A program made the translations under genes and the position numbers. Shown here one piece after another: positions 1 through 13,390 of a DNA stretch of 64,000 nucleotides (positions are counted from its first letter, which is position 1; each line of letters begins with the position of its first letter). The stretch is from contig JACOXI010000004.1 in the NCBI GenBank assembly GCA_016176335.1, positions 18,303-82,302 on the forward strand, in the 5' to 3' direction. Origin of the DNA: Candidatus Daviesbacteria bacterium. GTDB lineage: Bacteria > Patescibacteriota > Microgenomatia > Daviesbacterales > UBA10151. The notes beneath the pieces were generated by a model. The model saw nothing but the letters and a program-made list of their open reading frames with translations, was not told where the DNA came from and ran no database searches.

Positions 1-4
1 GCAG

Positions 5-445
5 GTGGAGCACGGATTAAAGTTTCTAATAGTTGATTATTTGCAGCTTATTCATGGAAGAAATCTGGAAAACAGGGTGCAGGAAGTTTCAGAGATTTCC
101 CAAAACTTAAAAAATTTGGCCAGGGAATTAAAGATTCCGGTTCTGGCTATATCACAACTTAACCGTTCGGTTGAGGCGCGGGGTACCAAAAGGCCTCAAC
201 TGGCAGATCTTCGTGAATCCGGTGCAATTGAACAGGATGCTGATGTGGTGATGTTTATTTACAGAGAAGATCCGGACAAAGGGGAAAACGTTACTTTAGA
301 TATTCAAAAACACAGAAATGGACCAACAGGAGAGATAGAGTTATTCTTTCGGGCGGAGCGGACCAAGTTTTACGGTGCGGAGAAGGCCAGAATTAAATCT
401 ACTGAAAAAGTCGAGTCAAAGGAAGCTCCTGTCGCAGCTGCCTAG
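5..445 (+). CDS. dnaB: Replicative DNA helicase DnaB, C-terminal fragment (5' end outside window)
   Basis: Translation carries the DnaB C-terminal RecA-like motifs: [39 protein letters not shown]. The ORF runs off the left edge. Confidence 0.8.
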
Positions 446-990
446 AGGATAATTAAAGTAGCAATCAGTAAATAGACTAATAAACTGATCAAGTTTTGTA
501 AGATTGTGGTAAATGGACCTGCACCTAAAGCTGGGTCTTCATGTTCTTTAAAAAGCACTTCTGGCACAATTAGAGCAATCATTGGAGCTATAATCCCATT
601 AATAAACATAGCTATGGCAACTGTTAGGGCAACATTAGTAGATCCTAACCAAAATTTGGCAAACAGCCCAAGTAAGCTGCCAAAAATTATTCCAAAAGAT
701 ATCCCAACCATCAGTTCTTTAATAAAATACTGAAAAAAATTATCTCTGAACTTTGCTAAATTTCTGACATAGATATTTTCTGTTTGAGTGCCTATAGCAT
801 CAGACATATAAACAATCACAGGCAAGAAAAACGCCAAAGAGATATTTTGAGATAAAATACTTTCAAATTTGGAAACTAAAATTGTGACAATTATTCCACC
901 TAAAAGTCCCACAATAAGCCAGGGAAATCTTTCCTTAATTAAGAGACTTACTCTTTCTTTAGCATCATCTGTGATGTGGTAATTAGCCAT
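442..990 (-). CDS. MgtE-family divalent cation transporter, membrane domain only (no CBS/N-domain)
   Basis: 182 aa with 4-5 TM helices. MgtE TM-domain motifs: [18 protein letters not shown] and [22 protein letters not shown]. Confidence 0.6.
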
Positions 991-1239
991 TAATTTGAGT
1001 ATATCATTTATAAGAGATAGAGTTGTTTAATTTGATATTTGGTGCCGGGGGAGGGAGTTCCTTCGACAGATTCGATGAACTTACTGCAAGCAAGCTCAGG
1101 ATAAACTTCTCCTCCCTCTGATCATAAACCTTTGGTGTTAAAAATACCTATTCTGGCTCAGGAGATAGCAAAAAGCTTGTGGGGTACAAAGCCTTCATTG
1201 AACATAACTAAATTTTAAACTTCAAAGAATTTTTAGATC

Positions 1240-1268
1240 TTGACATGAAAGTATATACTGGATACTAT
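1240..1268 (+). promoter_or_regulatory. Candidate sigma70-like promoter for the ArsR gene: TTGACA-17nt-TACTAT, start codon 6 nt downstream (leaderless)
   Basis: TTGACA at 1240-1245 and TACTAT at 1263-1268. ATG at 1275 with no Shine-Dalgarno sequence. Confidence 0.4.
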
Positions 1269-1274
1269 TAATAT

Positions 1275-1643
1275 ATGCTCAATCGTTCATATATTAAAGG
1301 TCATAAAGTACACCCCCATTATTTAACAGATTCTAAAATTTTATCACTTCAAAAGAGCATTAACTTTTCACTGGAAGAAGAAAAATTAGTTAGAGTTATC
1401 CGTCATTTATCAGACACTACAAAATTAAAGATTTATTTACTATTACATAAAGTTGAGGAAATATCAGTAACTGATTTAACTCAAGTTTTGGGACTTTCCC
1501 AATCAGCTGTTTCCCATGCCTTATCTGATTTAAAAAATTTAGGACTTGTGGAAAGTTATCGCTGCGGGCAATTAATCTGTTACTCGCTTAAGTTAGGTAC
1601 GAGAAAACGTAAATTGTTAAGCTTTCTTGAAAGGTTTAAGTAA
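1275..1643 (+). CDS. ArsR/SmtB-family metalloregulatory transcription factor
   Basis: Classic ArsR helix-turn-helix: ISVTDLTQVLGLSQSAVSHALSDLKNLGLV. About 120 aa. Confidence 0.8.
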   Translation: MLNRSYIKGHKVHPHYLTDSKILSLQKSINFSLEEEKLVRVIRHLSDTTKLKIYLLLHKVEEISVTDLTQVLGLSQSAVSHALSDLKNLGLVESYRCGQLICYSLKLGTRKRKLLSFLERFK

Positions 1644-1645
1644 TC

Positions 1646-2086
1646 ATGAAACCATTTAATGTATTCATTGCTATATCCCTGATTATAATTGCATTAGGTG
1701 TTTTCTTCTTTAGGAACGGATTCAACAAACCACAAAATATAGTCTCAAACACCGATTCTCCAGTTTTGATGGACAGGCTAAATTATATAGATTATTCGGA
1801 GCAGAATTTAGAGTCAGCTAAAAGAAACGGAAGACCAGTTTTGTTTTTTGCTGCCACTGTTTGGTGTCAAACCTGCCAGGCTTTGGAAAAAGAGATAAAA
1901 GAGAAGGGTAATCTCCTACCATCTGATGTAACAATACTTAAGGTTGATTATGATCATGATAGAGAAATGAATAGAAAATGGGGTGTAACTTCTCAGCATA
2001 CATTGATTGTTTTAGATCAAAATGGCAATGAAGTAAAAAGATGGATCGGCGGCAATCTTGATGCTTTAATTCAAAATTTAAACTGA
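1646..2086 (+). CDS. Membrane-anchored thioredoxin-fold protein (TlpA/ResA-like thiol:disulfide oxidoreductase)
   Basis: N-terminal TM helix followed by a thioredoxin-like WCQTC active-site motif. The start sits 3 nt after the ArsR stop. Confidence 0.7.
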   Translation: MKPFNVFIAISLIIIALGVFFFRNGFNKPQNIVSNTDSPVLMDRLNYIDYSEQNLESAKRNGRPVLFFAATVWCQTCQALEKEIKEKGNLLPSDVTILKVDYDHDREMNRKWGVTSQHTLIVLDQNGNEVKRWIGGNLDALIQNLN

Positions 2087-2096
2087 AGCAAGCTTC

Positions 2097-3776
2097 GTGC
2101 TTCGCAATAAAATTATGTTTCTGCTCATACCAATAGCTTTTATATCAGGAATATTAACAGTATTTTCACCTTGTGTTCTGCCGATACTCCCCGCTGTTTT
2201 GGCAAGCGGCATTGATGGAAATACCAGAAGGATCAAGGGGGTTATCTTAGGGCTTGTGATAAGTTTTACCGTTGCCTCTTTGCTTTTGGCAACAGTAGTT
2301 CGGGTTTTAGGTATTCCTGCAGATATTGTCAGAGCTTTAGCAGTAGTACTTTTAATTTTATTCGGAGTAAGCCTGGTATTTCCTATTATTTGGGAAAGGA
2401 TTCAGATCTGGATTGAAAGATACTGGCACTTTCAGCCAACTCAAAATCAAGGTAGTGGTTTCTGGGGAGGATTTTTAACAGGCACAAGCTTAGGAATTGT
2501 CTGGACACCCTGTATTGGTCCGGTTGTAGCAGCTATGGCAACACTGGCTGCAGTAAGCTCATTTTCTCTAACAATGGTATTAATTATTTTTGCCTACGCA
2601 ATCGGGACAGGAATACCACTGTACTTTATTGCAAGGGGTGGAAGTGCAGCTTCCCAGAAATTAACTTTTTTTAAAACCCAGAATCAGAAAATAAGACAAG
2701 TTTTTGGAATTATTATTCTAGCAACAGCATTATCTATTTGGACAGGCGCAGATAGAGTGTTGCAGGCTTGGACACTAACTAATTTACCAGAATCTTGGAC
2801 ACAACTTGCAACTACTTTTGAAAGTAAAGTTAAAGTGGATACGCAACTTAGTGAGTTAAAAGGAGGCGAACAGCAAATACAGAAGGCAACCCCTGGAGAA
2901 ACTGTGGTGAAAAAAGTATCCTTGCAAAACGATTTCAAGGGAGCAAAAATCAAGAAAGAAGATCTTTTACAAGGCTGTTTTGGGCAGGATTGCATTCCCT
3001 CAATTGATAATCCTAGATTTGAATCTATGAATGATGCTACCTGGTTAAGAGATGAAGACATTGTCTTTGCAATTGATTACAAAGGTGTGCAAAGAGCATA
3101 CCCTCAAAGAATTCTCAATTGGCACGAGATTGTCAATGATACTATCGCTAGTGATCCTGTAGCAGTTACTTTTTGCCCGCTTTGCGGGTCAGCTTTAGCT
3201 TTTGAGAGAAAGGTTGATGGGATAATTACAGAACTGGGTGTGTCTGGAAAGCTTCATAATAGTGATTTAGTTATGTATGATCGGTACGAGGGTAATTTAT
3301 GGCAACAAATTACAGGCGAGGGAATTGTCGGGCCTGCCGCAAGAAGAAATGAAGTTTTAAAACAAATTCCCATAATTACTACACCATGGGGGAAGTGGAA
3401 AAAGGAGCACCCCAATACTCAAGTGCTTTCAAGAAATACCGGCCATAGCAGAAATTACGATCAATACCCATATGGAACTTATGAACAGGATGATCAACTA
3501 TTTTTTGGTGTCAAAGGACTAGATAAAAGTCTTCAGATAAAAACAGTAGTGTATGGAATAGACGTTGATGGTAGGTCAAAGGCTTATCCGGAGAGTGCTT
3601 TTGAAACAAAAAAAGTTATAGAAGATAAGATCGGAGATACACCAATTAGATTAGAGAGAAAAGATTCTGGAGAGATCAAGGCAATAAATATACAAACAAA
3701 TGAAGAAATAATACCTATTAGGCTCTTCTGGTTTGCCTGGGTGGCATTTCACCAGGATACAGAAATTTATCCATGA
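2097..3776 (+). CDS. CcdA/DsbD-type thiol-disulfide transmembrane electron transporter fused to a C-terminal DUF3179 domain
   Basis: The N-terminal half has the CcdA signature Cys motifs in TM helices: SPCVLPILP and WTPCIGPV. The C-terminal ~300 aa has DUF3179 hallmarks: IPSIDNPRF, AYPQRIL, VTFCPLCGSA, LWQQITGE and FWFAWVAFHQDTEIY. Confidence 0.75.
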   Translation: MLRNKIMFLLIPIAFISGILTVFSPCVLPILPAVLASGIDGNTRRIKGVILGLVISFTVASLLLATVVRVLGIPADIVRALAVVLLILFGVSLVFPIIWERIQIWIERYWHFQPTQNQGSGFWGGFLTGTSLGIVWTPCIGPVVAAMATLAAVSSFSLTMVLIIFAYAIGTGIPLYFIARGGSAASQKLTFFKTQNQKIRQVFGIIILATALSIWTGADRVLQAWTLTNLPESWTQLATTFESKVKVDTQLSELKGGEQQIQKATPGETVVKKVSLQNDFKGAKIKKEDLLQGCFGQDCIPSIDNPRFESMNDATWLRDEDIVFAIDYKGVQRAYPQRILNWHEIVNDTIASDPVAVTFCPLCGSALAFERKVDGIITELGVSGKLHNSDLVMYDRYEGNLWQQITGEGIVGPAARRNEVLKQIPIITTPWGKWKKEHPNTQVLSRNTGHSRNYDQYPYGTYEQDDQLFFGVKGLDKSLQIKTVVYGIDVDGRSKAYPESAFETKKVIEDKIGDTPIRLERKDSGEIKAINIQTNEEIIPIRLFWFAWVAFHQDTEIYP

Positions 3777-4291
3777 ACAGAAAACTGATGGTTCTAAAAC
3801 AGTTGGATCTTTTTAAGGCGCTAACTGAAGATATGCTCAAATATATCAGTGAGCGTTTTGCTGAAAGAGAGTATGGCAAGAGACAGGTTATATTTGAGCC
3901 TGAAGATCGAGATAAGGTTTTTTTGTTAAAAAGCGGCAAAGTAGAGATTTATCAACTTACACCTGATGGTAAAAAAATTATTATTGATGTTTTGAGTTCT
4001 GGTGATGTTTTTGGAGATTTGGGTGTAAAAGAAGAAAATGAGCATTTTGTTGAAGCTACAACCAATTCTTTTGTTTGCGTGATGAACAAAGATGAATTTT
4101 TTGATATGGTTAGTAAAGTTCCCCAGGTTGCTAATATATTAGTTAAGGAGCTTTTCTCCAAGGTAATTGAGTCTGAAAAACAAATAGCTGCACTGGCTTC
4201 AGATAATCTTTTGGTTAAAGTAAAAAATTTACTGTTAAGACTTGCCAAAAAACATGGGGAGGTAAAGGACGACAGAGTGGTAATTACCTAA
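3773..4291 (+). CDS. Crp/Fnr-family cNMP-binding domain protein, truncated (lacks the HTH; probable pseudogene, see findings)
   Basis: The cNMP-binding beta-roll and dimerisation helix are present: GDVFGDLG ... LLLRLAKKHGEVKDDRVVIT. The ORF stops where the DNA-binding HTH should begin. Confidence 0.6.
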   Translation: MNRKLMVLKQLDLFKALTEDMLKYISERFAEREYGKRQVIFEPEDRDKVFLLKSGKVEIYQLTPDGKKIIIDVLSSGDVFGDLGVKEENEHFVEATTNSFVCVMNKDEFFDMVSKVPQVANILVKELFSKVIESEKQIAALASDNLLVKVKNLLLRLAKKHGEVKDDRVVIT

Positions 4292-4403
4292 TAAACTTGA
4301 GGAAAATAGAATAATTGAAAGAGATGGAAAAATAATCTCCTTTGACCCTCAAAAACTAGCCGAACTTTAATAAGCTATTTACACTTTTCGCATGTCCCAT
4401 TAA

Positions 4404-5513
4404 TTAATTAAAAACTCTTTGACTTTTTTCTGTTGATAGCCCTTCGTTATCTTTAGCCCCCACAACAACTATCGCATCAGGGCACTCCCCGGGAGTGTCA
4501 TAGCGCCATTCAACCTGCGAACCATCCACAGGTCCCACAAAATATCCGCAATTTATTTTCCAGACAAATGTCAGTTTTCCACCTTCAGGATCTGAAGCTG
4601 TAACTTTGAGCAAATATCGGTGGGGCGTCTCCTCGTAAGAACCATGAAGTTGTGTATTATCAATCCTTTCTACGATTGGAGGTCGGCCTGTACTTTGAGT
4701 CTTTTTGGCCTCGTCAGGCGTTTTCTGTGTTTTACCTTCAGTCGTTATTGTCCGGTCCATTTCCTCAAGTTTCTCATCTCCCGTAAGACCGTAAGCAATA
4801 CTGTAGTCTGCTGTGATTTGTTGTTTGACAATATTGGCAAACAATTTACTGACTGCATTTTTGTCAATAAGAGCAATTTGTGACCAGTTTACTGTAGTTG
4901 GAGGTATATCAAGTTGCGAAGTGCTCTTATCCTCACAATCCCAAAAAGAAATGCTGAATTTGGCAACAAATTCATATTCAATCCGCCTGTTGCTGTTTTT
5001 TGGATCTACCATAAACCCTTGTAAATCGACTTGTAAATCGAGCCTGTCAAGATTGATCCTGACAGAAGAATCTTTATCTGTTGGATAATCACAGTCCTGT
5101 GGTCCATATACCCAGCCGTCACCCGTAAAAAGCGTTTGTTTTTTGATTCCCAAGAACTCTCCAACAGTATTGACGGCTCTTTTAACCAGTCTGCCAAATG
5201 AAACCAACACGTTGGAGGGAGGTCTTTGTTCATCTAAGTAGTACTCATCAATGCGTCCGTGAACTTCACGATCAACTCGCCAGTTGCGCTTATCTTTGGC
5301 AGCCATCATGATTTCCCATTGCATGGTCTTCATTGCTTCTACCACTGCTTTTGGCCAGTTTTTGATATTTTCGGGTTTTCCATCATAAACATTTGAAGCA
5401 ATTTCAGGACTGTCTATACCAAACATCTCATATGCTGAAACATCACGAACATGGGAGAAAAAGAATAAGAGTAATATCAGGATGATAAATAACTTTGGAG
5501 CGGATTTCATCAT
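4404..5513 (-). CDS. Secreted hypothetical protein (signal peptide)
   Basis: Hydrophobic N-terminal signal sequence with an AYE cleavage-like site. No recognisable catalytic motif. Confidence 0.55.
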   Translation of the reverse strand: MMKSAPKLFIILILLLFFFSHVRDVSAYEMFGIDSPEIASNVYDGKPENIKNWPKAVVEAMKTMQWEIMMAAKDKRNWRVDREVHGRIDEYYLDEQRPPSNVLVSFGRLVKRAVNTVGEFLGIKKQTLFTGDGWVYGPQDCDYPTDKDSSVRINLDRLDLQVDLQGFMVDPKNSNRRIEYEFVAKFSISFWDCEDKSTSQLDIPPTTVNWSQIALIDKNAVSKLFANIVKQQITADYSIAYGLTGDEKLEEMDRTITTEGKTQKTPDEAKKTQSTGRPPIVERIDNTQLHGSYEETPHRYLLKVTASDPEGGKLTFVWKINCGYFVGPVDGSQVEWRYDTPGECPDAIVVVGAKDNEGLSTEKSQRVFN

Positions 5514-5517
5514 TGTT

Positions 5518-5919
5518 TTAATTAAACTTTACTTGTTGTAAAATGGCTGTCTGTTCGCCTGGATTTTGACTTACGGAGATTGTTATGGTGATTTCTTGCT
5601 TTGTTGACTTAAAAATAAGGCCTTTTTGATCTATCACCTGCCAACCATTCTCTTTGGCATTTTTCAAGAGGAAATCAAAAACCTCTTGAGGAGAATCATT
5701 TGAGGCAAAAGCAACCGCAAAATCAGATGGCGGTTTGGTTGCCATTCTAAAAATTGTAGATTCGGGATAAACCGGGAAATCCGGAACGGCGGTAGAGGAT
5801 GTATCAGAGGAAATAAGATCCAAACTGTCCTGATTTTTTACCATCACAAAAACACCTATCAGCACCACTATAGAAAGCAGCAATACAATCCGGATGTTTA
5901 ATAATTTTATTAACAACAT
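5518..5919 (-). CDS. Membrane-anchored hypothetical protein, co-oriented with and 4 nt upstream of the secreted protein
   Basis: N-terminal TM helix. Forms a tight two-gene unit with 4404..5513. Confidence 0.45.
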   Translation of the reverse strand: MLLIKLLNIRIVLLLSIVVLIGVFVMVKNQDSLDLISSDTSSTAVPDFPVYPESTIFRMATKPPSDFAVAFASNDSPQEVFDFLLKNAKENGWQVIDQKGLIFKSTKQEITITISVSQNPGEQTAILQQVKFN

Positions 5920-6078
5920 TGTTTAGCCCCTTAGATATCTTTTTGCTTGAAAAATGAATTTATCATTTTTTCTTTCTAGTACCAGTGTAGCAGAGAAATA
6001 AAAGTAAGGTCAAGGGGACCACAATTTTTGTCACTCAAATGACAGAATAGCTCAATTGAATGGTCTATTATTAAACGC

Positions 6079-6423
6079 GTGAGAGGTATTGCCACTTGCC
6101 AGGATTGTCCAATTAATATAACCATTTACCGCTTTACCGGCAGCCAGGGCTTTTTTAGTATACCCAAAAAGTGGTGTGAAGAGTGCGACCTGCTGGTGGA
6201 GTTGGTTAAAAAAACCGTCTCAAGTTTGAGATTGGAAAATAAAACAAAATTGACCATCAAGCCTTGGTTTCCCTGGTTTTGGCAGCCACTTTTAACAAAT
6301 TTAGCTTGGCATGCTCCAATTTTAACCATTAATGGAAGATTAATCAGTCAGGGGATTGTACCGGATAAGCATATCTTTACTAAAGCCCTTTTAGAAAATG
6401 TCGTTCAAACAACGGAAATATAG
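6079..6423 (+). CDS. Hypothetical protein with two CxxC motifs (possible thioredoxin-fold/metal-binding)
   Basis: CQDC and CEEC motifs. GTG start and no clear RBS, so this is a weak call. Confidence 0.35.
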   Translation: MRGIATCQDCPINITIYRFTGSQGFFSIPKKWCEECDLLVELVKKTVSSLRLENKTKLTIKPWFPWFWQPLLTNLAWHAPILTINGRLISQGIVPDKHIFTKALLENVVQTTEI

Positions 6424-6631
6424 ACAGATTAAATGTATATTTTAAACATGAACATCAAAAAAATTTTAAGCAATACAATTTTGAAAGACTTATACCTGCT
6501 TTTGACAGCGCCTATAGATAGTCCTGTTAAAAAATCTATCAACGGCAAAAAGGCTGAAGATAAATCCGAAGATCGTTTCATAAGATATATTTTAGATAAT
6601 CTGGTTGTGGGAAAAATGAAAGGAGGTAGAT

Positions 6632-6790
6632 ATGTCGCACGGACCACATCATAACTGTTTAATGTGTAGTATGGCAAAAACTGTGGGGATGATGGAGAAA
6701 CACCCAAAAGACTGTGATTGTGAAGCTCATCCCAAAAACAGGGATGAACAAAAAAGCGAAAGCAAGATCTCCGCCAGTTTAGGAATGTAG
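6632..6790 (+). CDS. Small Cys/His-rich protein, 52 aa (not in the ORF track); putative metal-binding
   Basis: AGGAGG at 6621-6626 lies 5 nt before the ATG. Product: MSHGPHHNCLMCSMAKTVGMMEKHPKDCDCEAHPKNRDEQKSESKISASLGM. Confidence 0.45.
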   Translation: MSHGPHHNCLMCSMAKTVGMMEKHPKDCDCEAHPKNRDEQKSESKISASLGM

Positions 6791-6966
6791 ATTTTGCTTA
6801 AATCAGGTTTGGGGGTAGGATATCAGTCCTAAATTTATAGACTGATTGCCGAGATTAAAAGGTCAAGCACCCAAAATTTGGTCATTGCCCGACATTCCCG
6901 GCCCTACCCTGAAACTTTGTAGTTAAAACGACAGATTTTAAAAAGAGAAAAGGATAAATTGAGACT

Positions 6967-7305
6967 ATGAAAAATAACATTCTGCATCTAACAGATCAAA
7001 ATTTTAAAGAGGAAGTTTTGAATTCAAATTTGCCGGTGATGGTAGATTACTGGGCTTCGTGGTGTTTCCCATGCAGGATAGTGGGCCCTATTATTGAAGA
7101 GTTGGCAGATGAGTTCAGTAGTAAACTAAGGGTGGGCAAATTAAATGTAGATGAAAATCCCCAAACAGCAGCCAGTTTTGGCATTATGAGTATCCCCACC
7201 ATCATAATATTTAAAGACGGTAAGCAAGTTAAGGTGATGGTCGGCGCTCAAAGTAAAGACTACTTCAAACAGCAAATTAATCAAATATTGGAGGGAAAAA
7301 TATGA
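6967..7305 (+). CDS. trxA: Thioredoxin
   Basis: WCFPC active site in the VDYWASWCFPCR context. 112 aa thioredoxin fold. Confidence 0.85.
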   Translation: MKNNILHLTDQNFKEEVLNSNLPVMVDYWASWCFPCRIVGPIIEELADEFSSKLRVGKLNVDENPQTAASFGIMSIPTIIIFKDGKQVKVMVGAQSKDYFKQQINQILEGKI

Positions 7306-7664
7306 GAAAAATTTTAATAGTACTTTTGGCAGATAAATGGAGTCATGAAAATATGGGGAGAGCATCTCACGCACTCTTGTATGCAAAGCAGTCAAAAGAG
7401 TCTGGACTGAAAGTTAAATTGATATTTGATGGTGGAGGTACTGAATGGGCGGTAGAGATGACAAAAGAGTCAAGCCATTTCTATAAACTGTATAAGGAAT
7501 TAATTGAGGCAGGGGTTGTTTTTAGCGTATGTGAATCTTGCGCCAAAGCATTTAAGGTAGAGCAAGATTTAAAAGCCGTGAAAGACCCTTTTGATGAGGA
7601 GGATCAGGGTCATCCCGATATTGGTAAGCATCTTGCATCAGGCTGGGATGTCATAATGCTTTAG
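7302..7664 (+). CDS. DsrE/DsrF(YchN)-like sulfur-relay/peroxiredoxin-like family protein
   Basis: 120 aa. MRKILIVLL...HALLYA pattern typical of the DsrE fold. Start overlaps the trxA stop. Confidence 0.55.
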   Translation: MRKILIVLLADKWSHENMGRASHALLYAKQSKESGLKVKLIFDGGGTEWAVEMTKESSHFYKLYKELIEAGVVFSVCESCAKAFKVEQDLKAVKDPFDEEDQGHPDIGKHLASGWDVIML

Positions 7665-7674
7665 TTGCTAAATT

Positions 7675-7980
7675 ATGAAAACAAAACTAATTGAACTTTG
7701 GAAAAATGATTGTGAGCATTGTGAGGCTACAAAGCCTATTCTTGAAGAGCTTGAAAAAGATGGATACCAATTTGAAAGATTTAATATAGAAACTCCGGAG
7801 GGTGAGAAAATTTGGAGAAACTACTCAAAAGAAATAGACGAGAATAATAAAAAAATGGGTTATGAATTAGGCTACATTTATACTCCTACGATAATTAATC
7901 CAGAAATCAGGAGATTAATAGCATTTCAAGATCGGGCACCGAAAAAAGAAGAAATAATAAGTCTTGCAGGTTTAGAGTAA
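7675..7980 (+). CDS. Glutaredoxin/thioredoxin-like small CxxC protein
   Basis: CEHC motif near the N-terminus (LWKNDCEHCEATKPILEEL), typical of glutaredoxin-like proteins. Confidence 0.55.
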   Translation: MKTKLIELWKNDCEHCEATKPILEELEKDGYQFERFNIETPEGEKIWRNYSKEIDENNKKMGYELGYIYTPTIINPEIRRLIAFQDRAPKKEEIISLAGLE

Positions 7981-8014
7981 AAACACTACATTATGAAAGG
8001 AGGTGTATAAAAAT

Positions 8015-8209
8015 ATGAATGATCAAAATCAAAACACTTGCATGGCATGTTCTTGCCCATGTGACATGCACAAAGAACACAGTCACTCAACCGAAAAAGC
8101 AGGTACGCAGAAGGAACATTCAATGACTTGCTCAAAATGCGGGCTTAAAGCAAAAGATCCTGGGGAAATGGAAGAGCATGGAAAAGCTCACCAGGGAGGA
8201 CAAATGTGA
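8015..8209 (+). CDS. Small Cys/His-rich protein, 64 aa; putative metal-binding
   Basis: GGAGG at 7999-8003 and ATG at 8015. Product contains CMACSCPCDMHKEHSHS and CSKCGLKAKDPGEMEEHGKAH. The GTG at 8003 in the ORF track is probably not the real start. Confidence 0.5.
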   Translation: MNDQNQNTCMACSCPCDMHKEHSHSTEKAGTQKEHSMTCSKCGLKAKDPGEMEEHGKAHQGGQM

Positions 8210-9561
8210 GGAAAAAATTTGATGTTTTAGTTGTTGGTTCAGGAGCCGGTCTTGAGGTGGCATCTTTTGCTGCCGAGCGCGGTCTGTCTGTTGCAATAGT
8301 TGAGGAAGGTCCGCTGGGTGGGACTTGTTTAAACAGAGGTTGTATTCCTTCAAAAATGTTAATCCATTCATCGGATGTTTTGGAGACTATTAAAAGCAGT
8401 GAGAAATTTGGCATTAAAAGCAAAATAGAGGGAATTGATTTTGCCTCTATTGTCAAAAGGGTGTCAGAAGTTGTTGACAGCGATTCTGTTGGTATAGAGA
8501 AAAGTATCAGAGAAAATGGCAACCCTACCCTTTATAAGATGAGGGGCAAATTTATTGGACCTAAGCTAATGCAGGTAGGTGATGAACAAATAGAAGGAGA
8601 GAAAGTTTTTATTGTGGGAGGAACCAGGCCTTCAATTCCTCCTCTTCCCGGTCTCGAAATTACACCATATCTTGATAGCACCAAGGCTTTAAGGCTGGAA
8701 AAACAGCCTGAGCATATGGTTATTATAGGGGGTGGTTATATTGCGGCAGAACTGGCTCATTTTTATGGAGCCTTGGGAACTCAAATTACTATCTTAGTCC
8801 GGGGGAAGAGAATGCTCGACAAGGAGGATGAAGAAATAGCAGACTGGTTTACTAAAGAATTTTCTAAAAAATATCAGATCTTATTTAATGCTGAAGCGGA
8901 GGCAGTTTCATACCAGGATGGCAAATTTACCATTAAATTAAAGGGTGATGGGAACAACAAAATTTATGCAGATCAACTGCTGGTGGCAGCCGGCAGAGTT
9001 CCCAACACTGATATATTGGAGGTATCCGCAACAGGAGTTGAGATGGATGATAAAGGATTTATCAAAGTTAATGAGTATTTAGAAACTAATGTAGAAGGAG
9101 TATGGGCTTTTGGAGACATTTTAGGCATTTTACCTTTTAGGCATACTGCCAATGACCAGGTGGGCTTTTCCATCAGTAATGCTTTTACAGATAAAAAAGT
9201 AGCATTTGATCCTTTTGCCATTGGCCATGCGGTTTTCTCTTCACCACAGGTTGGTGGAGTTGGTAAAACAGAGCAAGAGCTAAAAAAGATGGGCATTAAA
9301 TATAAAGTTGGAAGAGAGGAGCTTAAAAATACTGCTATGGGAGGAGCTTTGCAGGAAAATGGTTTGGCCAAAGTTATCACAGATGAAACAGGCAAGAAAA
9401 TCTTAGGTGTCCATATTATTGGTCCGCAAGCTTCAATATTAATTCATGAAGCCATAGTGGCTATGAAAGGAAATGGCACAGTAGATGCCATTACCCAATC
9501 GGTTTATATTCATCCTGCTTTACCTGAATGGTTACAAAGAGCATTTTTTGATATTGCATAA
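8206..9561 (+). CDS. Class I pyridine nucleotide-disulfide oxidoreductase (dihydrolipoamide dehydrogenase / glutathione-reductase-like)
   Basis: Redox-active disulfide motif GGTCLNRGCIPSK. FAD (GSGAGL) and NAD (GGGYIAAE) Rossmann motifs. No C-terminal Cys pair, so it is not MerA. Confidence 0.85.
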   Translation: MRKKFDVLVVGSGAGLEVASFAAERGLSVAIVEEGPLGGTCLNRGCIPSKMLIHSSDVLETIKSSEKFGIKSKIEGIDFASIVKRVSEVVDSDSVGIEKSIRENGNPTLYKMRGKFIGPKLMQVGDEQIEGEKVFIVGGTRPSIPPLPGLEITPYLDSTKALRLEKQPEHMVIIGGGYIAAELAHFYGALGTQITILVRGKRMLDKEDEEIADWFTKEFSKKYQILFNAEAEAVSYQDGKFTIKLKGDGNNKIYADQLLVAAGRVPNTDILEVSATGVEMDDKGFIKVNEYLETNVEGVWAFGDILGILPFRHTANDQVGFSISNAFTDKKVAFDPFAIGHAVFSSPQVGGVGKTEQELKKMGIKYKVGREELKNTAMGGALQENGLAKVITDETGKKILGVHIIGPQASILIHEAIVAMKGNGTVDAITQSVYIHPALPEWLQRAFFDIA

Positions 9562-9562
9562 T

Positions 9563-10090
9563 ATGTATAACCAAAAGAAACTTTTAGAATTTAGAAAACA
9601 AAAAGATAAGGCTTGGAAAAATGATGCAGAGTCTCCTTTAACGCAGGAGCAAAGACAAGAGTTTAAAGGCTTGAATTATTTTCCGCCTAATCCCAGTTTA
9701 AATTTTGAATTGGAGCTTGATAAAAATATACCGGATGTTGGTAAAAAGGTGGCTATTAAAACAACTAGTGGAGATGAGCAAATTTATCTAAGAGCTGGCA
9801 AGGTTAAATTTAGCGTTGAAGGTACTGATGTGGAGGCTATTGTTTTTGAAGATCCTGATCAAGAACAGTTTCGATATTATCTACTTTTTAGAGACCTAAC
9901 AACTGGAAAAGAAACTTATGAAAACGGCAGAATGTTACAAATTCCTCAAAAAGGAAATCAATTAATAATTGATTTTAATTACACCTATAATCCATATAGT
10001 TCATACAATGATCAATGGGATTGTCCAATAACCCTGGAAGAAAATATTTTGCCTGTAGCAATCAAGGCAGGTGAGAAGAAATTTCACTAA
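9563..10090 (+). CDS. DUF1684 family protein
   Basis: C-terminal YNPYSSYNDQWDCPITLEEN matches the DUF1684 signature. Start chosen at the ATG just after the upstream stop; the ORF track begins at 9485, inside the upstream gene. Confidence 0.6.
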   Translation: MYNQKKLLEFRKQKDKAWKNDAESPLTQEQRQEFKGLNYFPPNPSLNFELELDKNIPDVGKKVAIKTTSGDEQIYLRAGKVKFSVEGTDVEAIVFEDPDQEQFRYYLLFRDLTTGKETYENGRMLQIPQKGNQLIIDFNYTYNPYSSYNDQWDCPITLEENILPVAIKAGEKKFH

Positions 10091-10092
10091 TT

Positions 10093-10617
10093 ATGCCAAA
10101 TAAAATTATTGACTTATACAACCATACTTTTGGGCATCATCATAAGAGTTTTGATTATAATCAAATCACTGATGAGGTTTTTATAGGCACAAATATGTGC
10201 TGCCAATTCGGTTTTAATAGAGAATTACTCACAAAAAAAGTCAGAGCAGATATTAGCCTGGAAGAAGTTAGAGTAGATGCACCAATGGGGGTGGATTACT
10301 TTTTATGGCTGCCAACTAAAGATCACCAAGCCCCCACTTTTGATAAATTAACCCTTGGAGTACAAACACTGGATTTTCTAAAGGATAAGAAAATAAAAGT
10401 CTATATTCATTGTAAGAATGGGCACGGCAGAGCCCCAACACTCCTCGCAGCCTATTTTATCTACGCCAGTAGAGAAAGGAGCTCGTCTCGTTTCATTTCT
10501 CAAGGGATGGAAGTGGAAGAGGCAATAGAAAAGATAAGATCCAAAAGGCCGGAGATTCATATTAGGGATGTACAAATTGAAGCATTAAATAAATTTAAGC
10601 AAAAGATTGGAAGGTAG
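10093..10617 (+). CDS. Dual-specificity / protein-tyrosine phosphatase family protein
   Basis: Cys-X5-Arg P-loop: VYIHCKNGHGRAPT. Confidence 0.7.
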   Translation: MPNKIIDLYNHTFGHHHKSFDYNQITDEVFIGTNMCCQFGFNRELLTKKVRADISLEEVRVDAPMGVDYFLWLPTKDHQAPTFDKLTLGVQTLDFLKDKKIKVYIHCKNGHGRAPTLLAAYFIYASRERSSSRFISQGMEVEEAIEKIRSKRPEIHIRDVQIEALNKFKQKIGR

Positions 10618-10674
10618 AAAGAATAGTAGATGGAGTTACTATTGTCTTAAATAATGGCTCAATTGTCAGATATG

Positions 10675-10757
10675 TGGCCAGGGAGAGAGTCGAACTCTCA
10701 TGAGGTTGCCCTCAATAGTTTTTGAGACTATCCTGTCTGCCATTCCAGCACCTGGCC
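10675..10757 (-). tRNA. tRNA-Leu (anticodon CAA)
   Basis: Minus-strand read: acceptor GGCCAGG/CCTGGCC, D-loop GGAATGGCAGAC, anticodon stem ATAGT/ACTAT with loop CTCAAAA (anticodon CAA), long variable arm GAGG..CCTC, T-arm GAGAG-TTCGACT-CTCTC, discriminator A. CCA is not encoded. Confidence 0.9.
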
Positions 10758-10849
10758 ATTACTTCGCGTCTTCCTGGGTGAACTTAAGTTGTATATTTCC
10801 ACCCCGGCGCAAATTGAATTATACCAGTTTTTAAGATAAACTCACCTTA

Positions 10850-13390
10850 ATGAAAAATACCCACAGACTGCCGGTACATGTTAAACCAGAGCGTTACAAG
10901 ATCATGCTCAAACCTGATTTGGAAAACTTTATCTTTGAAGGAGAAGAAACAATTTATCTAAATCTGGAAAAACCAAGCAAAGAAATTATTTTGCATTCAG
11001 CTGATCTGGAAATAGAATCTGTGGAGTGGATTCACCGGGGTGAAGAAATCTGGGCTGGGAAAATCTCATATGACAAAAAAAGAGAGACTGCCACATTTAC
11101 TTTCCCAAAATCTCTGGAAAAAGGAAAGGGTGAGTTAAAATTTAAGTTTAAAGGGATTTTGAATGATAAGATGCGGGGTTTTTACAGAAGTAAGTTTGAA
11201 GTTGATGGAGTGGTCAAACACCTGGCTACCACCCAATTTGAATCAACTGATGCCAGGAGAGCTTTTCCCTGTTTTGATGAGCCTTCCCAAAAAGCTATTT
11301 TTGATGTGACCTTGATGATCCCGTCGCATATGGTGGCCATTTCCAACACCATTGAATCAAATGTCTGGGAGCATGAAACAGGGGTAAGGGTGGTGGAATT
11401 TGAACCGACCCCAAAAATGTCCACTTACCTTTTAGCCTTTATTGTGGGGGAGTTTGAATATATAGAAGGGAAAAGGGGAAAGGGTGAAGTGGTAAGGGTT
11501 TTCACTACACCAGGGAAGAAGGATCAAGCCAAATTTGCCCTTGATGTGGCCATTAAATGTATGGATTTTTATGAAGATTATTTTGATATTCCATATCCCC
11601 TTCCGGTTTTGGACTTAATAGCCATTCCGGATTTTACTGCAGGAGCAATGGAAAATTGGGGAGCAGTCACTTACAGGGAATCGACTCTTCTTTTTGATCC
11701 TAAAAAGTCATCAGTAGGGAATAAGCAATGGATAGCATTAGTAATTGCCCACGAGTTGGCTCATCAGTGGTTTGGCAATCTGGTGACTATGGAGTGGTGG
11801 ACCCATCTTTGGCTAAATGAAGGATTTGCCTCATTTATTGAATATCTGGCAATTGATCATATTTTTCCTGATTGGGATATCTGGACTCAATTTGTAGCAA
11901 TTGAGACGGAAGAAGCCTTACGCTTAGATTCTTTAAAGAATACTCACCCGATTGAGGTGGAAGTAGGTCATCCGGCGGAGATCAGTGAGATTTTTGATAA
12001 GGTTTCTTATTCCAAGGGAGCATCAATCCTAAGAATGCTTTGGCAATATTTAGGGCCAAAATTTTTCCAAAAAGGACTGCAGTATTATTTAAAGAAACAT
12101 GCCTATGGTAATGCTCAAACAGAAGATTTATGGAATGCTTTAGGGGAAGTTTCAGGTAAGCCGGCTGGGAAGATCATGGCCAATTGGACATCGAAGCCCG
12201 GACATCCACTGATTACAGTTTCAGAACATAATGATAAATTAAAACTTACCCAATCCAGATTTTTCTCCAGTACAATTTCTAAAAGAGAAACTAAAGATGA
12301 TACAGTTTGGAGTATCCCCCTAAAATATCAAAACTCAAATGTCAAATCTCAAAACTACATGTTAAATGTCAAAACTATGAATATTCCTAAACCAAAAGAT
12401 ATGGAATGGATTAAGTTGAACGACGGGGAAGTGAGTTTTGTCAGGGTTGATTATCCGCAAGAATACTTGCAAAAACTGGAGTCAGCTATTAGAACCGGAC
12501 AATTATCTGCTCCAGACAGATTAGGACTCATCAGGGATACTTTTGATTTAGCGCAAAACGGGGCAAGTCCAACCACCTTGGCGCTGGAATTGGCCCTAAG
12601 CTATAAAAATGAAGAAGACTATACTGTCTGGAGTGAACTGACAGGAAAATTGGCTCAACTGGATTCGCTTTTATACTTTGAGAATTTTTATGAGGACTTT
12701 AAAAGATACGGAAGGGAAATTTATGGCGGAGTGGCAAATAGAATGGGATGGGAAAAGAGAAAGGGAGAAAAGTATACAGATGCGCTTTTAAGAGGGATGG
12801 TTTTACTAAGAATTGGGGCATTTGGTGATGAGGGAACCATCAAGCATGCACTGGGGCTGTTTAAAAGCAGTAGCAAGATCGCCCCGGACCTTCGTGGAGT
12901 AGTTTACAACTTGGTGGCAGAAAACGGGGGAGAGACAGAATTTAAGACCTTACTTAAAATGTACAAAGATGAAGATAACCAGCAGGAAAAAGACAGGATA
13001 GGAAGGGCTTTGGGACAACCTAAGATTAAATCTCTCCTGCAAAAGACTTTAAACTTTTCAATTTCCAAAGATGTCAGGTTTCAAAATACTTTGGGGATGA
13101 TTGCTGCAGTTTGGGGAAATGCTGAAGGCAGATATCTGGCCTGGGAGTTTGTCAAAAGTAACTGGAAGTTACTGAAAGAAAGATATGCCGGAGGGCATTA
13201 TTTTACCAGAGTTTTTGGCTCTGCAGGGGAGTTTACTAAAATTTCCGATGCCAAAGATATAGAGTCCTTTGCAAGGAACAATCCCACCCCTGAAGCTAAA
13301 AGAACCATAGCCCAGGCTTTAGAACAAATTTATTCCAATGTGGAATGGTTAAAAAGAGATAAAGAGAAGATTAAGAGCTTCTTAAGTTAA
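10850..13390 (+). CDS. pepN: Aminopeptidase N (M1 family zinc metallopeptidase)
   Basis: GAMEN motif and HELAHQWFGNLVTMEWW...E zinc-binding motif. 846 aa. Confidence 0.9.
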   Translation: MKNTHRLPVHVKPERYKIMLKPDLENFIFEGEETIYLNLEKPSKEIILHSADLEIESVEWIHRGEEIWAGKISYDKKRETATFTFPKSLEKGKGELKFKFKGILNDKMRGFYRSKFEVDGVVKHLATTQFESTDARRAFPCFDEPSQKAIFDVTLMIPSHMVAISNTIESNVWEHETGVRVVEFEPTPKMSTYLLAFIVGEFEYIEGKRGKGEVVRVFTTPGKKDQAKFALDVAIKCMDFYEDYFDIPYPLPVLDLIAIPDFTAGAMENWGAVTYRESTLLFDPKKSSVGNKQWIALVIAHELAHQWFGNLVTMEWWTHLWLNEGFASFIEYLAIDHIFPDWDIWTQFVAIETEEALRLDSLKNTHPIEVEVGHPAEISEIFDKVSYSKGASILRMLWQYLGPKFFQKGLQYYLKKHAYGNAQTEDLWNALGEVSGKPAGKIMANWTSKPGHPLITVSEHNDKLKLTQSRFFSSTISKRETKDDTVWSIPLKYQNSNVKSQNYMLNVKTMNIPKPKDMEWIKLNDGEVSFVRVDYPQEYLQKLESAIRTGQLSAPDRLGLIRDTFDLAQNGASPTTLALELALSYKNEEDYTVWSELTGKLAQLDSLLYFENFYEDFKRYGREIYGGVANRMGWEKRKGEKYTDALLRGMVLLRIGAFGDEGTIKHALGLFKSSSKIAPDLRGVVYNLVAENGGETEFKTLLKMYKDEDNQQEKDRIGRALGQPKIKSLLQKTLNFSISKDVRFQNTLGMIAAVWGNAEGRYLAWEFVKSNWKLLKERYAGGHYFTRVFGSAGEFTKISDAKDIESFARNNPTPEAKRTIAQALEQIYSNVEWLKRDKEKIKSFLS

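Follow-up and report, generated by a model that had tools for sequence, protein, structure and literature searches.

A probable thiol:disulfide relay operon with zinc-finger-like miniproteins, conserved among bacteria of the candidate phyla radiation

CcdA is an established electron conduit from cytoplasmic thioredoxin to extracytoplasmic proteins of the thioredoxin fold, and in the known CcdA/DsbD relays the electrons pass from thioredoxin through CcdA to TlpA/ResA-like acceptors. We describe here a gene island at positions 1275–10617 of a 64-kb stretch of Candidatus Daviesbacteria DNA (hereafter the window), from the candidate phyla radiation (CPR). The island shares with these relays a DsbD_TM domain with two membrane Cys motifs, a membrane-anchored acceptor of the thioredoxin fold, and a co-encoded cytoplasmic thioredoxin and NAD(P)H flavoprotein. 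Clients for cytochrome c maturation, Msr, or sporulation, by contrast, are absent from it: the fused or adjacent client is the uncharacterised DUF3179, and the island further encodes a DSP-fold protein, a DUF1684 protein, an NADPH-type class I reductase of its own, and small Cys/His-rich proteins. The SmtB/SmtA system has in common with the island an ArsR-family repressor, a 12-2-12 operator, and small Cys/His-rich proteins encoded nearby, whose CxCxxC-like runs we take to be reminiscent of SmtA. In the island, however, the repressor has neither an α5 nor an α3N site, the small proteins have no PF02069 match and a tightly conserved non-ligand sequence, and their genes lie away from the operator. 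Mycothione reductase shares with the class I flavoprotein disulfide reductase of the island (FDR) the CLNRGC centre, the HPxxPE dyad, and the NADPH-type motif, and is its best solved match (8qcj), whereas FDR scores below the equivalog cut-offs and is translationally coupled to a small zinc-finger-like gene, a coupling that is not known for mycothione reductase. This small gene, open reading frame (ORF) B, encodes a protein that shares with the C2H2 fingers of Ros/MucR the spacing C-x2-C-x12-H-x3-H, the hydrophobic core, and a predicted β-β-α fold, but is acidic and lacks their basic DNA-binding region. Like ORF B, the zinc-finger micro-proteins of Haloferax volcanii are shorter than 70 aa and built only of metal-binding-type modules, which are C(P)XCG zinc ribbons there and a C2H2 finger plus a module that we call M1 in ORF B (PMC9779718, PMC6562870, PMC10716476).

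We read the island as a conserved thiol:disulfide relay operon of a Levybacteria-like CPR bacterium, autoregulated by its ArsR and equipped with zinc-finger-like accessory miniproteins, and give this reading a probability of about 0.6. An initial annotation, made from the letters of the DNA, had described the stretch as a cluster of thiol and disulfide genes. Scans of the window proteins against Pfam and NCBIfam, by which the domains were identified, found every such gene that it had named, and the cluster is borne out as well by its recurrence in the relatives of the window, which are metagenome-assembled genomes (MAGs) of Candidatus Levybacteria and Daviesbacteria. Related loci and contigs used for comparison are labelled with L-numbers (L001, L004, L005, and so on to L098). 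L005–L007 have the same order as the window in a tight 13-gene array with gaps below 65 nt: ArsR, membrane thioredoxin, CcdA-DUF3179, an intact Crp, a thioredoxin-fold protein, ORF A, thioredoxin, a glutaredoxin-like protein, ORF B, the reductase, a 127-aa gene, DUF1684, and the DSP-fold protein. Two Daviesbacteria loci (L011 and L013) retain CcdA-DUF3179, the glutaredoxin-like protein, ORF B, the reductase, DUF1684, and the DSP-fold protein. The Levybacteria contig L030 (617 kb) carries Crp, three thioredoxins, CcdA-DUF3179, two glutaredoxins, the reductase, a G6PD/6PGD fusion, and DUF1684, and its ORF B slot is occupied by a C2H2-C2H2 protein. The synteny that the initial annotation had proposed to look for in relatives is therefore real.

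The association extends beyond the closest relatives. The ORF B alignment, searched against a single genome of each species, returned 19 loci, whose titles name Daviesbacteria, Yanofsky-, Magasanik-, Azam-, Lipton-, Wildermuth-, and Harrisonbacteria or are generic. Neighbours of the small gene were counted within the fetched flanks of 22 loci with M1 genes: CcdA is present in 20, thioredoxin or Redoxin in 19, DUF3179 in 18, glutaredoxin also in 18 (within 110 nt in nine of them), and ArsR, the DSP-fold protein, and a flavoprotein reductase in 14 each, the last being either a class I enzyme or a 323-aa enzyme resembling thioredoxin reductase. For L017 and L024 the assignments are borne out by Pfam scans, which also identified DoxX, DUF3105, and glutamate dehydrogenase. 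Because membership persists while the gene order varies between lineages, we consider the genes likely to be functionally linked. We found no literature on this island in CPR bacteria.

The two short Cys/His-rich ORFs singled out by the initial annotation, ORF A (6632..6790, plus strand, 52 aa) and ORF B (8015..8209, plus strand, 64 aa), were correctly positioned, and both proved to be conserved genes under purifying selection. In a collection of 5.8 billion proteins, ORF B has 14 homologues with 56–91% identity (E down to 1e-29) and ORF A has 8 with 67–88% identity (E down to 3e-23); the exact sequences of the two window proteins were not on record in a database look-up. Pairwise dN/dS is 0.05–0.30 for ORF B and 0.05–0.19 for ORF A, at dS values from 0.7 to saturated. 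Neither of the two outcomes named as refuting the initial annotation, small ORFs without conservation in relatives or a scattered cluster, was thus observed. A strong Shine-Dalgarno sequence, AAAGGAGGT, lies 5 nt 5' of the ATG of ORF A. The start of ORF B is the ATG at 8015 and not the GTG at 8003, since its homologues all begin with MNDQN, and its stop codon shares nucleotides with the GTG at which the FDR gene begins (ATGTGA), in the window as in L005. Describing the ORFs as unannotated also holds for ORF A: the gene caller of contig L098 took an overlapping 68-aa ORF in its place, an ORF A-like gene of L030 went uncalled, and one homologue is annotated as a 'hypothetical protein' in a Levybacteria MAG. 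The L030 gene (9234–9386) has a strong ribosome-binding site, lies between the gene of a 117-aa membrane protein and two glutaredoxin genes, and encodes Cys at the position of H24 of ORF A. Gene callers still miss conserved, functional genes of 50–65 aa where ORFs overlap.

The invariant residues of ORF B are C9, C12, C14, C16, H19, H22, H24, C39, and C42, and those of ORF A are H3, H6, H7, C9, C12, H24, C28, and C30, the latter within the Cys4His4 motif M-x-H-G-x-H-H-x-C-L-M-C...H-x3-C-x-C-E. The profile searches to which the initial annotation had looked for their identity were only partly informative, as neither protein has a Pfam match at E≤10 or an NCBIfam match at E≤0.01 and a profile search with ORF A found nothing in the PDB, whereas the ORF B family profile finds C2H2 fingers there. 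Apart from two ribosomal zinc ribbons, these fingers are all that it finds (best E 0.0035). The C-terminal half of ORF B, C39-x2-C42-x12-H55-x3-H59 with A/F and M/L at the hydrophobic core positions, is by its pattern a classical C2H2 zinc finger. The AlphaFold2 (AF2) model of ORF B, which was used only for this local β-β-α element, has a hairpin and a helix at residues 37–60 with a pLDDT of about 77 (64 overall), and C2H2-C2H2 relatives carry precomputed PF00096/PF13894 matches, flagged as faint.

Residues 9–24 of ORF B form the M1 module, C9-M-A-C-S-C-P-C-D-M-H-K-E-H-S-H24. When the 41 matches (E≤0.001) of an exhaustive profile search through 1.84 billion representatives were pooled with the related loci, 54 distinct proteins with 62 M1 modules were obtained. 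Their 16-residue Cys4His3 consensus is C-M-A-C-S-C-P-C-[ED]-x-H-K-E-H-[NT]-[HC], in which the non-ligand residues Ala3, Pro7, Lys12, and Glu13 are near-invariant. Nothing in Pfam, NCBIfam, or the PDB corresponds to M1, and the string CMACSCPC occurs in no paper found by a literature search; a profile of M1 alone gave one 9-residue alignment in the PDB, which we discarded as meaningless. Judged by its residue pattern, M1 is a previously undescribed motif of the metal-binding type that is spread across CPR bacteria. It occurs in the architectures M1-C2H2, M1-CxxC/CxC, M1-M1, M1-M1-CxxC/CxC, and, permuted, CxxC/CC-M1, beside which there are C2H2-C2H2 proteins. The H-x3-H of ORF B is replaced by C-x2-C in three relatives, the last His of M1 is Cys in 3 of the 62 modules, and a C2H2 finger can take the place of M1 at the same position of the island, as in L030, where the small protein is encoded between glutaredoxin and FDR. 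Metal sites undergo such His-to-Cys ligand swaps and such an exchange of M1 for a finger, whereas disulfide-forming Cys residues do not; we therefore infer that the invariant Cys and His residues of ORF A and ORF B coordinate a metal, which is most likely Zn(II). ORF A resembles the CxxC/CxC module in pattern only, with a different spacing, and its family is narrower than the M1 family.

The initial annotation had taken both small proteins for metal-binding proteins of a metallothionein or metallochaperone kind. Metal binding is supported by the invariant Cys and His residues and the ligand swaps, but the likeness to metallothioneins is not, because the non-ligand residues are near-invariant, half of ORF B reads as a C2H2 finger, and neither the two ORFs nor four further members of the family gave a metallothionein match in Pfam (PF02069, E≤10). 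Nor does either ORF match rubredoxin in Pfam. As read from their sequences, both proteins are acidic and have no basic surface, which argues against DNA binding. They would be neither DNA-binding factors nor bulk metallothioneins.

FDR (8206..9561, plus strand; Pyr_redox_2 and Pyr_redox_dim) is most similar among solved structures to mycothione reductases, with 277 bits for 8qcj versus 232 for the best Lpd. Its redox centre CLNRGC is accompanied by the dyad IHPALPE; GGTCLNRGCIPSK and IHPALPE align with 8qcj, as does the VRGKRML segment with IGRSQRLL of the same structure, a pattern that presumably marks the use of NADPH. Against the mycothione reductase equivalogs NF005884 and TIGR03452 it scores 396 bits (cut-off 501) and 354 bits (cut-off 636), respectively, and against MerA (TIGR02053) 329 bits (cut-off 454). 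MerA was ruled out, as the C-terminus ...PEWLQRAFFDIA is free of Cys and there are no mer genes. Genes for mycothiol biosynthesis (MshA-D) are absent from the 64-kb window. In L001 (5781–9486; GCA_964396715.1), a gene set adjoining the ORF B homologue comprises a GT4 glycosyltransferase with MshA as its best match (290 bits, below the cut-off), a PIG-L deacetylase with BshB1 as its best match (below the cut-off), a His-phosphatase, and a 402-aa cysteinyl-tRNA synthetase without the anticodon-binding end (318 bits to MshC, below the cut-off). This set hints that a thiol of the mycothiol or bacillithiol kind might be produced by some of these CPR bacteria, in keeping with a mycothione-reductase-like enzyme. 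NAD(P)H-generating enzymes are encoded in related islands: GDH in L004 (6682–7971), L008–L010 (L008 2261–3376), and L024 (5274–6404), and the 795-aa G6PD/6PGD fusion in L030 (11594–13981). The redox islands thus appear to carry their own reductant supply. The other cytoplasmic candidates of the reductase arm, all on the plus strand and recognised by Pfam, are thioredoxin (6967..7305, WCFPC), the DsrE-like protein (7302..7664, CESC), and the glutaredoxin-like protein (7675..7980, CEHC).

The membrane part of the putative relay is encoded near the beginning of the island. The CcdA-DUF3179 fusion (2097..3776, plus strand) has a DsbD_TM domain (PF02683, E 1.6e-12) in which the motifs FSPCVLP and WTPCIGP, read from the sequence, place one Cys in each of the two membrane motifs. 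The membrane-anchored thioredoxin preceding it (1646..2086, plus strand; WCQTC, Pfam match, one N-terminal transmembrane helix) is a probable extracytoplasmic acceptor of CcdA. The DUF3179 part contains a CPLC motif, which is invariant also in the stand-alone DUF3179 proteins of other CPR loci, where an N-terminal signal anchor is found. As selenocysteine forms of DUF3179 (UxxC/T) occur at this very motif (PMC9312934, PMC13188914), CPLC is probably a redox or metal site; a sequence search found no solved structure for DUF3179. The plus-strand gene set ends with the DUF1684 protein (9563..10090, with its true start at about 9563), which is syntenic in L005, L011, L013, and L030, and the DSP-fold Cys phosphatase-like protein (10093..10617; HCKNGHGR), assigned by a match to DSP-type phosphatases. 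In many CPR lineages (L016–L029) the DSP-fold gene (HCx5R) adjoins or overlaps ccdA, for example at 9421–9942 and 9672–10694 in L024 and at 3720–4157 and 4177–4839 in L018, respectively, which suggests that the DSP-fold protein is tied to the membrane relay and not to protein dephosphorylation.

The arsR gene (1275..1643, plus strand) encodes a winged helix-turn-helix (HTH) repressor of the ArsR/SmtB family (HTH_5, PF01022, E 3.9e-10; NF033788, 67 bits versus a cut-off of 55). It is preceded by a promoter-like site on the same strand, TTGACA-17-TACTAT (1240..1268), with 10/12 consensus matches, whose TTGACA is kept in L005 although the surrounding DNA has diverged. From the position of the promoter relative to the ATG, the arsR mRNA is probably leaderless or near-leaderless. 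An ArsR operator palindrome, suspected at this promoter by the initial annotation, is indeed present at 1270..1295 (plus strand): AATATATGCTCA-AT-CGTTCATATATT, a 12-2-12 arrangement with perfect 10-nt inverted-repeat arms, starts just 3' of the -10 box and covers the arsR ATG at 1275. No other site in the window matches it at 0 mismatches, and L005 conserves it with one change, whereas the other upstream DNA has diverged. Identical arms, AATATATG-N10-CATATATT, recur in the start region of the arsR gene of L014, although that ArsR is only 38% identical, and the ArsR genes of other CPR islands have their own palindromes at the promoter or start. Published SmtB/ArsR 12-2-12 repeats match the form of the window operator (PMC8790569). 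A window scan found no second copy of the operator inside the cluster, and two opposite-strand genes intervene, so the operator can govern only the operon from arsR to crp here; the control of the island that the initial annotation had ascribed to ArsR could hold only for this first operon.

What ArsR might sense can be narrowed down from its residues. Inspection of the sequence for the α3 CxC, α3N, α4c, and α5 ligand sets found no characterised metal site: α3 reads EISVTDL and not ELCVCDL, the recognition helix is free of Cys, and α5 (GTRKRKLLSFLERFK) has neither Asp nor His ligands. Its only two Cys residues lie on the DNA-binding wing (RCGQLIC), and the N-terminus of the protein is rich in His. 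Its subfamily keeps the wing Cys (xCY) and a second Cys, which lies in α3 in most lineages and on the neighbouring wing strand in the window protein. Given these Cys residues and the lack of a characterised metal site, ArsR is most likely a thiol-based or soft-ligand sensor acting through the wing pair.

Taken together, the parts could be assembled into the following relay. NADPH would reduce the mycothione-reductase-like flavoprotein (8206–9561), which might keep the thioredoxin, the glutaredoxin-like and DsrE-like proteins, and possibly a low-molecular-weight thiol in the reduced state. The CcdA membrane domain would hand electrons outward, where they might end at the membrane-anchored thioredoxin and the CcdA-fused DUF3179 outside the cell, the invariant CPLC of DUF3179 being the likely terminal redox or metal site. 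ArsR would bind the 12-2-12 operator over its own start codon and respond, via the wing Cys pair, to thiol oxidation or a thiophilic ligand. The genes of ORF A and ORF B adjoin those of thioredoxin- and glutaredoxin-fold proteins, and the translation of ORF B is coupled to that of the reductase. The two cytoplasmic miniproteins would therefore work with the glutaredoxin/reductase arm, which would keep them reduced, and serve as its Zn-thiolate switches of redox state, its adaptors, or its buffers.

Two further elements accompany the small genes. The ORF that L098 has called as a gene instead of ORF A, o73 (6448..6654, plus strand, 68 aa), overlaps the start of ORF A by 23 nt and contains the motif ...LLTAPID...DNLVVG. 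It has no Pfam match and belongs to a family of 57–68 aa proteins (...TLWTAPID...DNLIIG...) with homologues in L001 (5622–5768), L008 (2072–2254), L037 (407–580), L050 (1706–1882), and L058 (379–576 and 7045–7221). These ORFs precede unrelated genes, namely ORF A, the MshA-like GT4 (L001), GDH (L008), and a gene that by eye looks LexA-like (L037, L058), in the manner of a leader ORF or a multi-copy small protein.

The second element is a structured RNA at 6800..6921 (plus strand) in the 5' region of the thioredoxin gene, supported by folding (z = -3.3) and covariation. It is about 120 nt long and consists of TCAGGTTTGGGGGTAGGA, variable hairpins, and CCTACCC..CTGA, with a long closing helix (TCAG/CTGA, GTT/AAC, GGGGGTAGGA/TCCTACCC) around a variable interior. 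Covariation is seen at the outermost pair (AU, CG, UA), and G-U pairing is confined to this strand. The element lies 3' of ORF A in the window, L004, and L008 and is missing in L005; copies of about 90–130 nt were located at 5478–5594 in L004, 1931–2045 in L008, 248–373 and 6923–7039 in L058, and nine further distinct metagenome loci. A 17-mer scan of metagenomes gave 66 matches, about 52 of which are probably due to chance because they have no 3' arm, and revealed eleven distinct copies besides those of the window, L004, and L008; every one of them lies just 5' of the start of a gene, which in several cases is an o73-like ORF that follows directly. A covariance model recovered the L058 copy at 6923–7039, on which it had not been trained, with 63 bits; this copy stands directly before the second o73-like ORF and has two compensatory changes, GGGGGCAGGA/TCCTGCCC and GCT/AGC. 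The element has no Rfam match and looks like a 5' leader RNA that is possibly regulatory or stabilising. Elsewhere, a hairpin at 1035–1140 was rejected as a structured element (z -1.8, no better than shuffles). An Rfam E-value scan of 1–12000 gave only a tRNA-Leu(CAA) at 10674–10757 on the minus strand (52.5 bits), with which ARAGORN concurs; a run over the whole window at the gathering thresholds listed nothing, this tRNA included, a difference that comes from filtering and not from biology.

The remaining genes lie in the middle of the island, within a window that is AT-rich (GC 0.32–0.45). The crp gene (3773–4291, with the tract extending to 4370, plus strand) has lost its HTH core and its frame through a deletion of about 61–68 nt at 4282–4291, while the cNMP-binding domain is intact; in contig L098 (SRR4343435), which is 99.6–100% identical, crp is intact and encodes 216 aa. 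The deletion is either strain-level variation or decay, or else an assembly error. Two minus-strand genes follow (4404–5513, 369 aa; 5518–5919, 133 aa), which are missing from the syntenic loci L005–L007 and had no match in a scan against Pfam-A, with NCBIfam left out; the longer product is secreted or anchored and the shorter one anchored. The initial annotation had mentioned neither the Crp-family gene and these two genes nor o73 and the RNA element. The gene of a thioredoxin-fold CxxC protein (6079..6423, plus strand; TCQDC and WCEEC, weak Thioredoxin_3 match) has an orthologue in L005 that is 75% identical. A perfect Crp-family-like palindrome, TGTCA-N6-TGACA (TGTCACTCAAATGACA, 6029–6044), lies 5' of this gene and is unique in the window; it was dropped as a Crp operator because no related locus has a copy.

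Several observations weigh against the relay reading and lower our confidence in it. The half of the island from 6079 onward cannot be controlled in the window by the ArsR of the first operon, and FDR falls under every NCBIfam equivalog cut-off (Mtr, Lpd, GR, MerA). The co-location counts over the 22 loci come without a background control, and the ORF B homologue of L001 is not beside a reductase or glutaredoxin, so that a partnership between the small protein and the reductase is not obligatory. M1 is rare: of the 1.84 billion representatives searched, 41 clusters reached E≤0.001, and unrelated C2H2 proteins account for some of these. The AF2 models of the small proteins are poor (pLDDT 64 and 59), and the top Foldseek matches of ORF B in the PDB, although all C2H2 fingers with local r.m.s.d. 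of 0.5–2.5 Å, are non-significant (E>1). The data also do not tell Zn from Cu, Ni, or Fe, nor metal binding from disulfide chemistry.

The last point leads to the explanation favoured by the initial annotation, a stress island for metals such as Cu, Zn, Hg, or As in which ArsR is the metal sensor and the two small proteins, as metallothioneins or metallochaperones, sequester the metal or deliver it. In favour of this, the regulator belongs to the ArsR/SmtB family, and its 12-2-12 operator is of a kind through which SmtB-type repressors control metallothionein genes. The small proteins are rich in Cys and His and exchange His for Cys at ligand positions, and ORF A has an invariant M-x-H N-terminus, which we take to resemble Ni/Cu-binding N-termini, and a Met-rich stretch. 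DUF3179 has moreover been listed among selenoproteins beside metal-handling proteins (PMC9312934, PMC13188914). On the other hand, neither the cluster nor any of the 22 related loci encodes a metal transporter, P-type ATPase, CDF, MerT/P, ArsB/Acr3, or CopZ, ArsR is devoid of the α3, α3N, α4c, and α5 ligand sets, and FDR lacks the C-terminal Cys pair of MerA and resembles mycothione reductase instead. The constant neighbours are thioredoxins, glutaredoxins, CcdA, and reductases, and the small proteins, with no metallothionein match in Pfam at E≤10, keep non-ligand residues of M1 and the finger near-invariant, unlike metallothioneins. A role in metal homeostasis, efflux, detoxification, or metal stress therefore seems unlikely to us.

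Two other roles for the small proteins deserve consideration. They might be rubredoxin-like iron proteins that shuttle electrons from the adjacent flavoprotein to an acceptor, in the manner of rubredoxin and rubredoxin reductase, as an M1 gene stands directly beside a Pyr_redox_2 flavoprotein in 14 of the 22 loci and many family members have CxxCG knuckles, one of them with a weak match to a rubredoxin-type zinc ribbon (E 0.048). We regard this as very unlikely, because the same slot in Levybacteria holds C2H2-C2H2 proteins, and C2H2 fingers are structural zinc sites; moreover, a rubredoxin match in Pfam and a second CPxCG knuckle are both lacking, and the Pfam scans of L017 and L024 revealed no rubrerythrin, superoxide reductase, or flavodiiron protein as an acceptor in the islands. 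The overlap of the ORF B stop with the FDR start (ATGTGA) in the window and L005 would suit a Cys/His-rich leader peptide, that is, an upstream ORF coupling the translation of reductase or thioredoxin to the supply of Cys and His, and o73 behaves like such a leader ORF before different genes, while the extreme conservation of the 16-residue Cys-rich core recalls precursors of modified peptides or peptide cofactors. That ORF A and ORF B are leaders or precursors is still less probable and borders on the implausible, since M1 genes occur upstream, downstream, or away from reductases, the modules are shuffled with bona fide zinc fingers, purifying selection acts along the whole length, and no maturation enzyme of the radical SAM, YcaO, or MbnBC-like type was found in any island (Pfam scans of L017 and L024). 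Accessory miniproteins of a thiol:disulfide relay remain our preferred reading.

The relay is composed of parts of known kinds, namely a CcdA relay, a class I reductase, an ArsR repressor, and C2H2 fingers, whereas the M1 module, the DUF3179-centred island of CPR bacteria, and the RNA leader are absent from the databases and papers searched. M1 itself is a new Cys4His3 motif of 16 residues, with which the classical C2H2 finger can be interchanged. None of the hallmarks of the island, that is, DUF3179, DUF1684, the DSP-fold protein, and the small proteins, is functionally characterised, and the analysis offers a testable electron path, a defined operator, and the new motif.

The CPR comprises a large and almost wholly uncultivated share of bacterial diversity with minimal metabolism. 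Because the island is kept across several of its lineages, it likely matters for the physiology of these bacteria. One could go further and speculate, as a distinctly long shot, that the M1 miniproteins are dedicated redox partners of flavoprotein reductases throughout the CPR, serving as an encoded thiol mediator or a protein stand-in for a glutathione-type thiol, and that the system delivers NADPH electrons via CcdA to the extracytoplasmic DUF3179 as a new kind of terminal extracellular reductase. If this were true, such a reductase would be important for the episymbiotic lifestyle of these bacteria.

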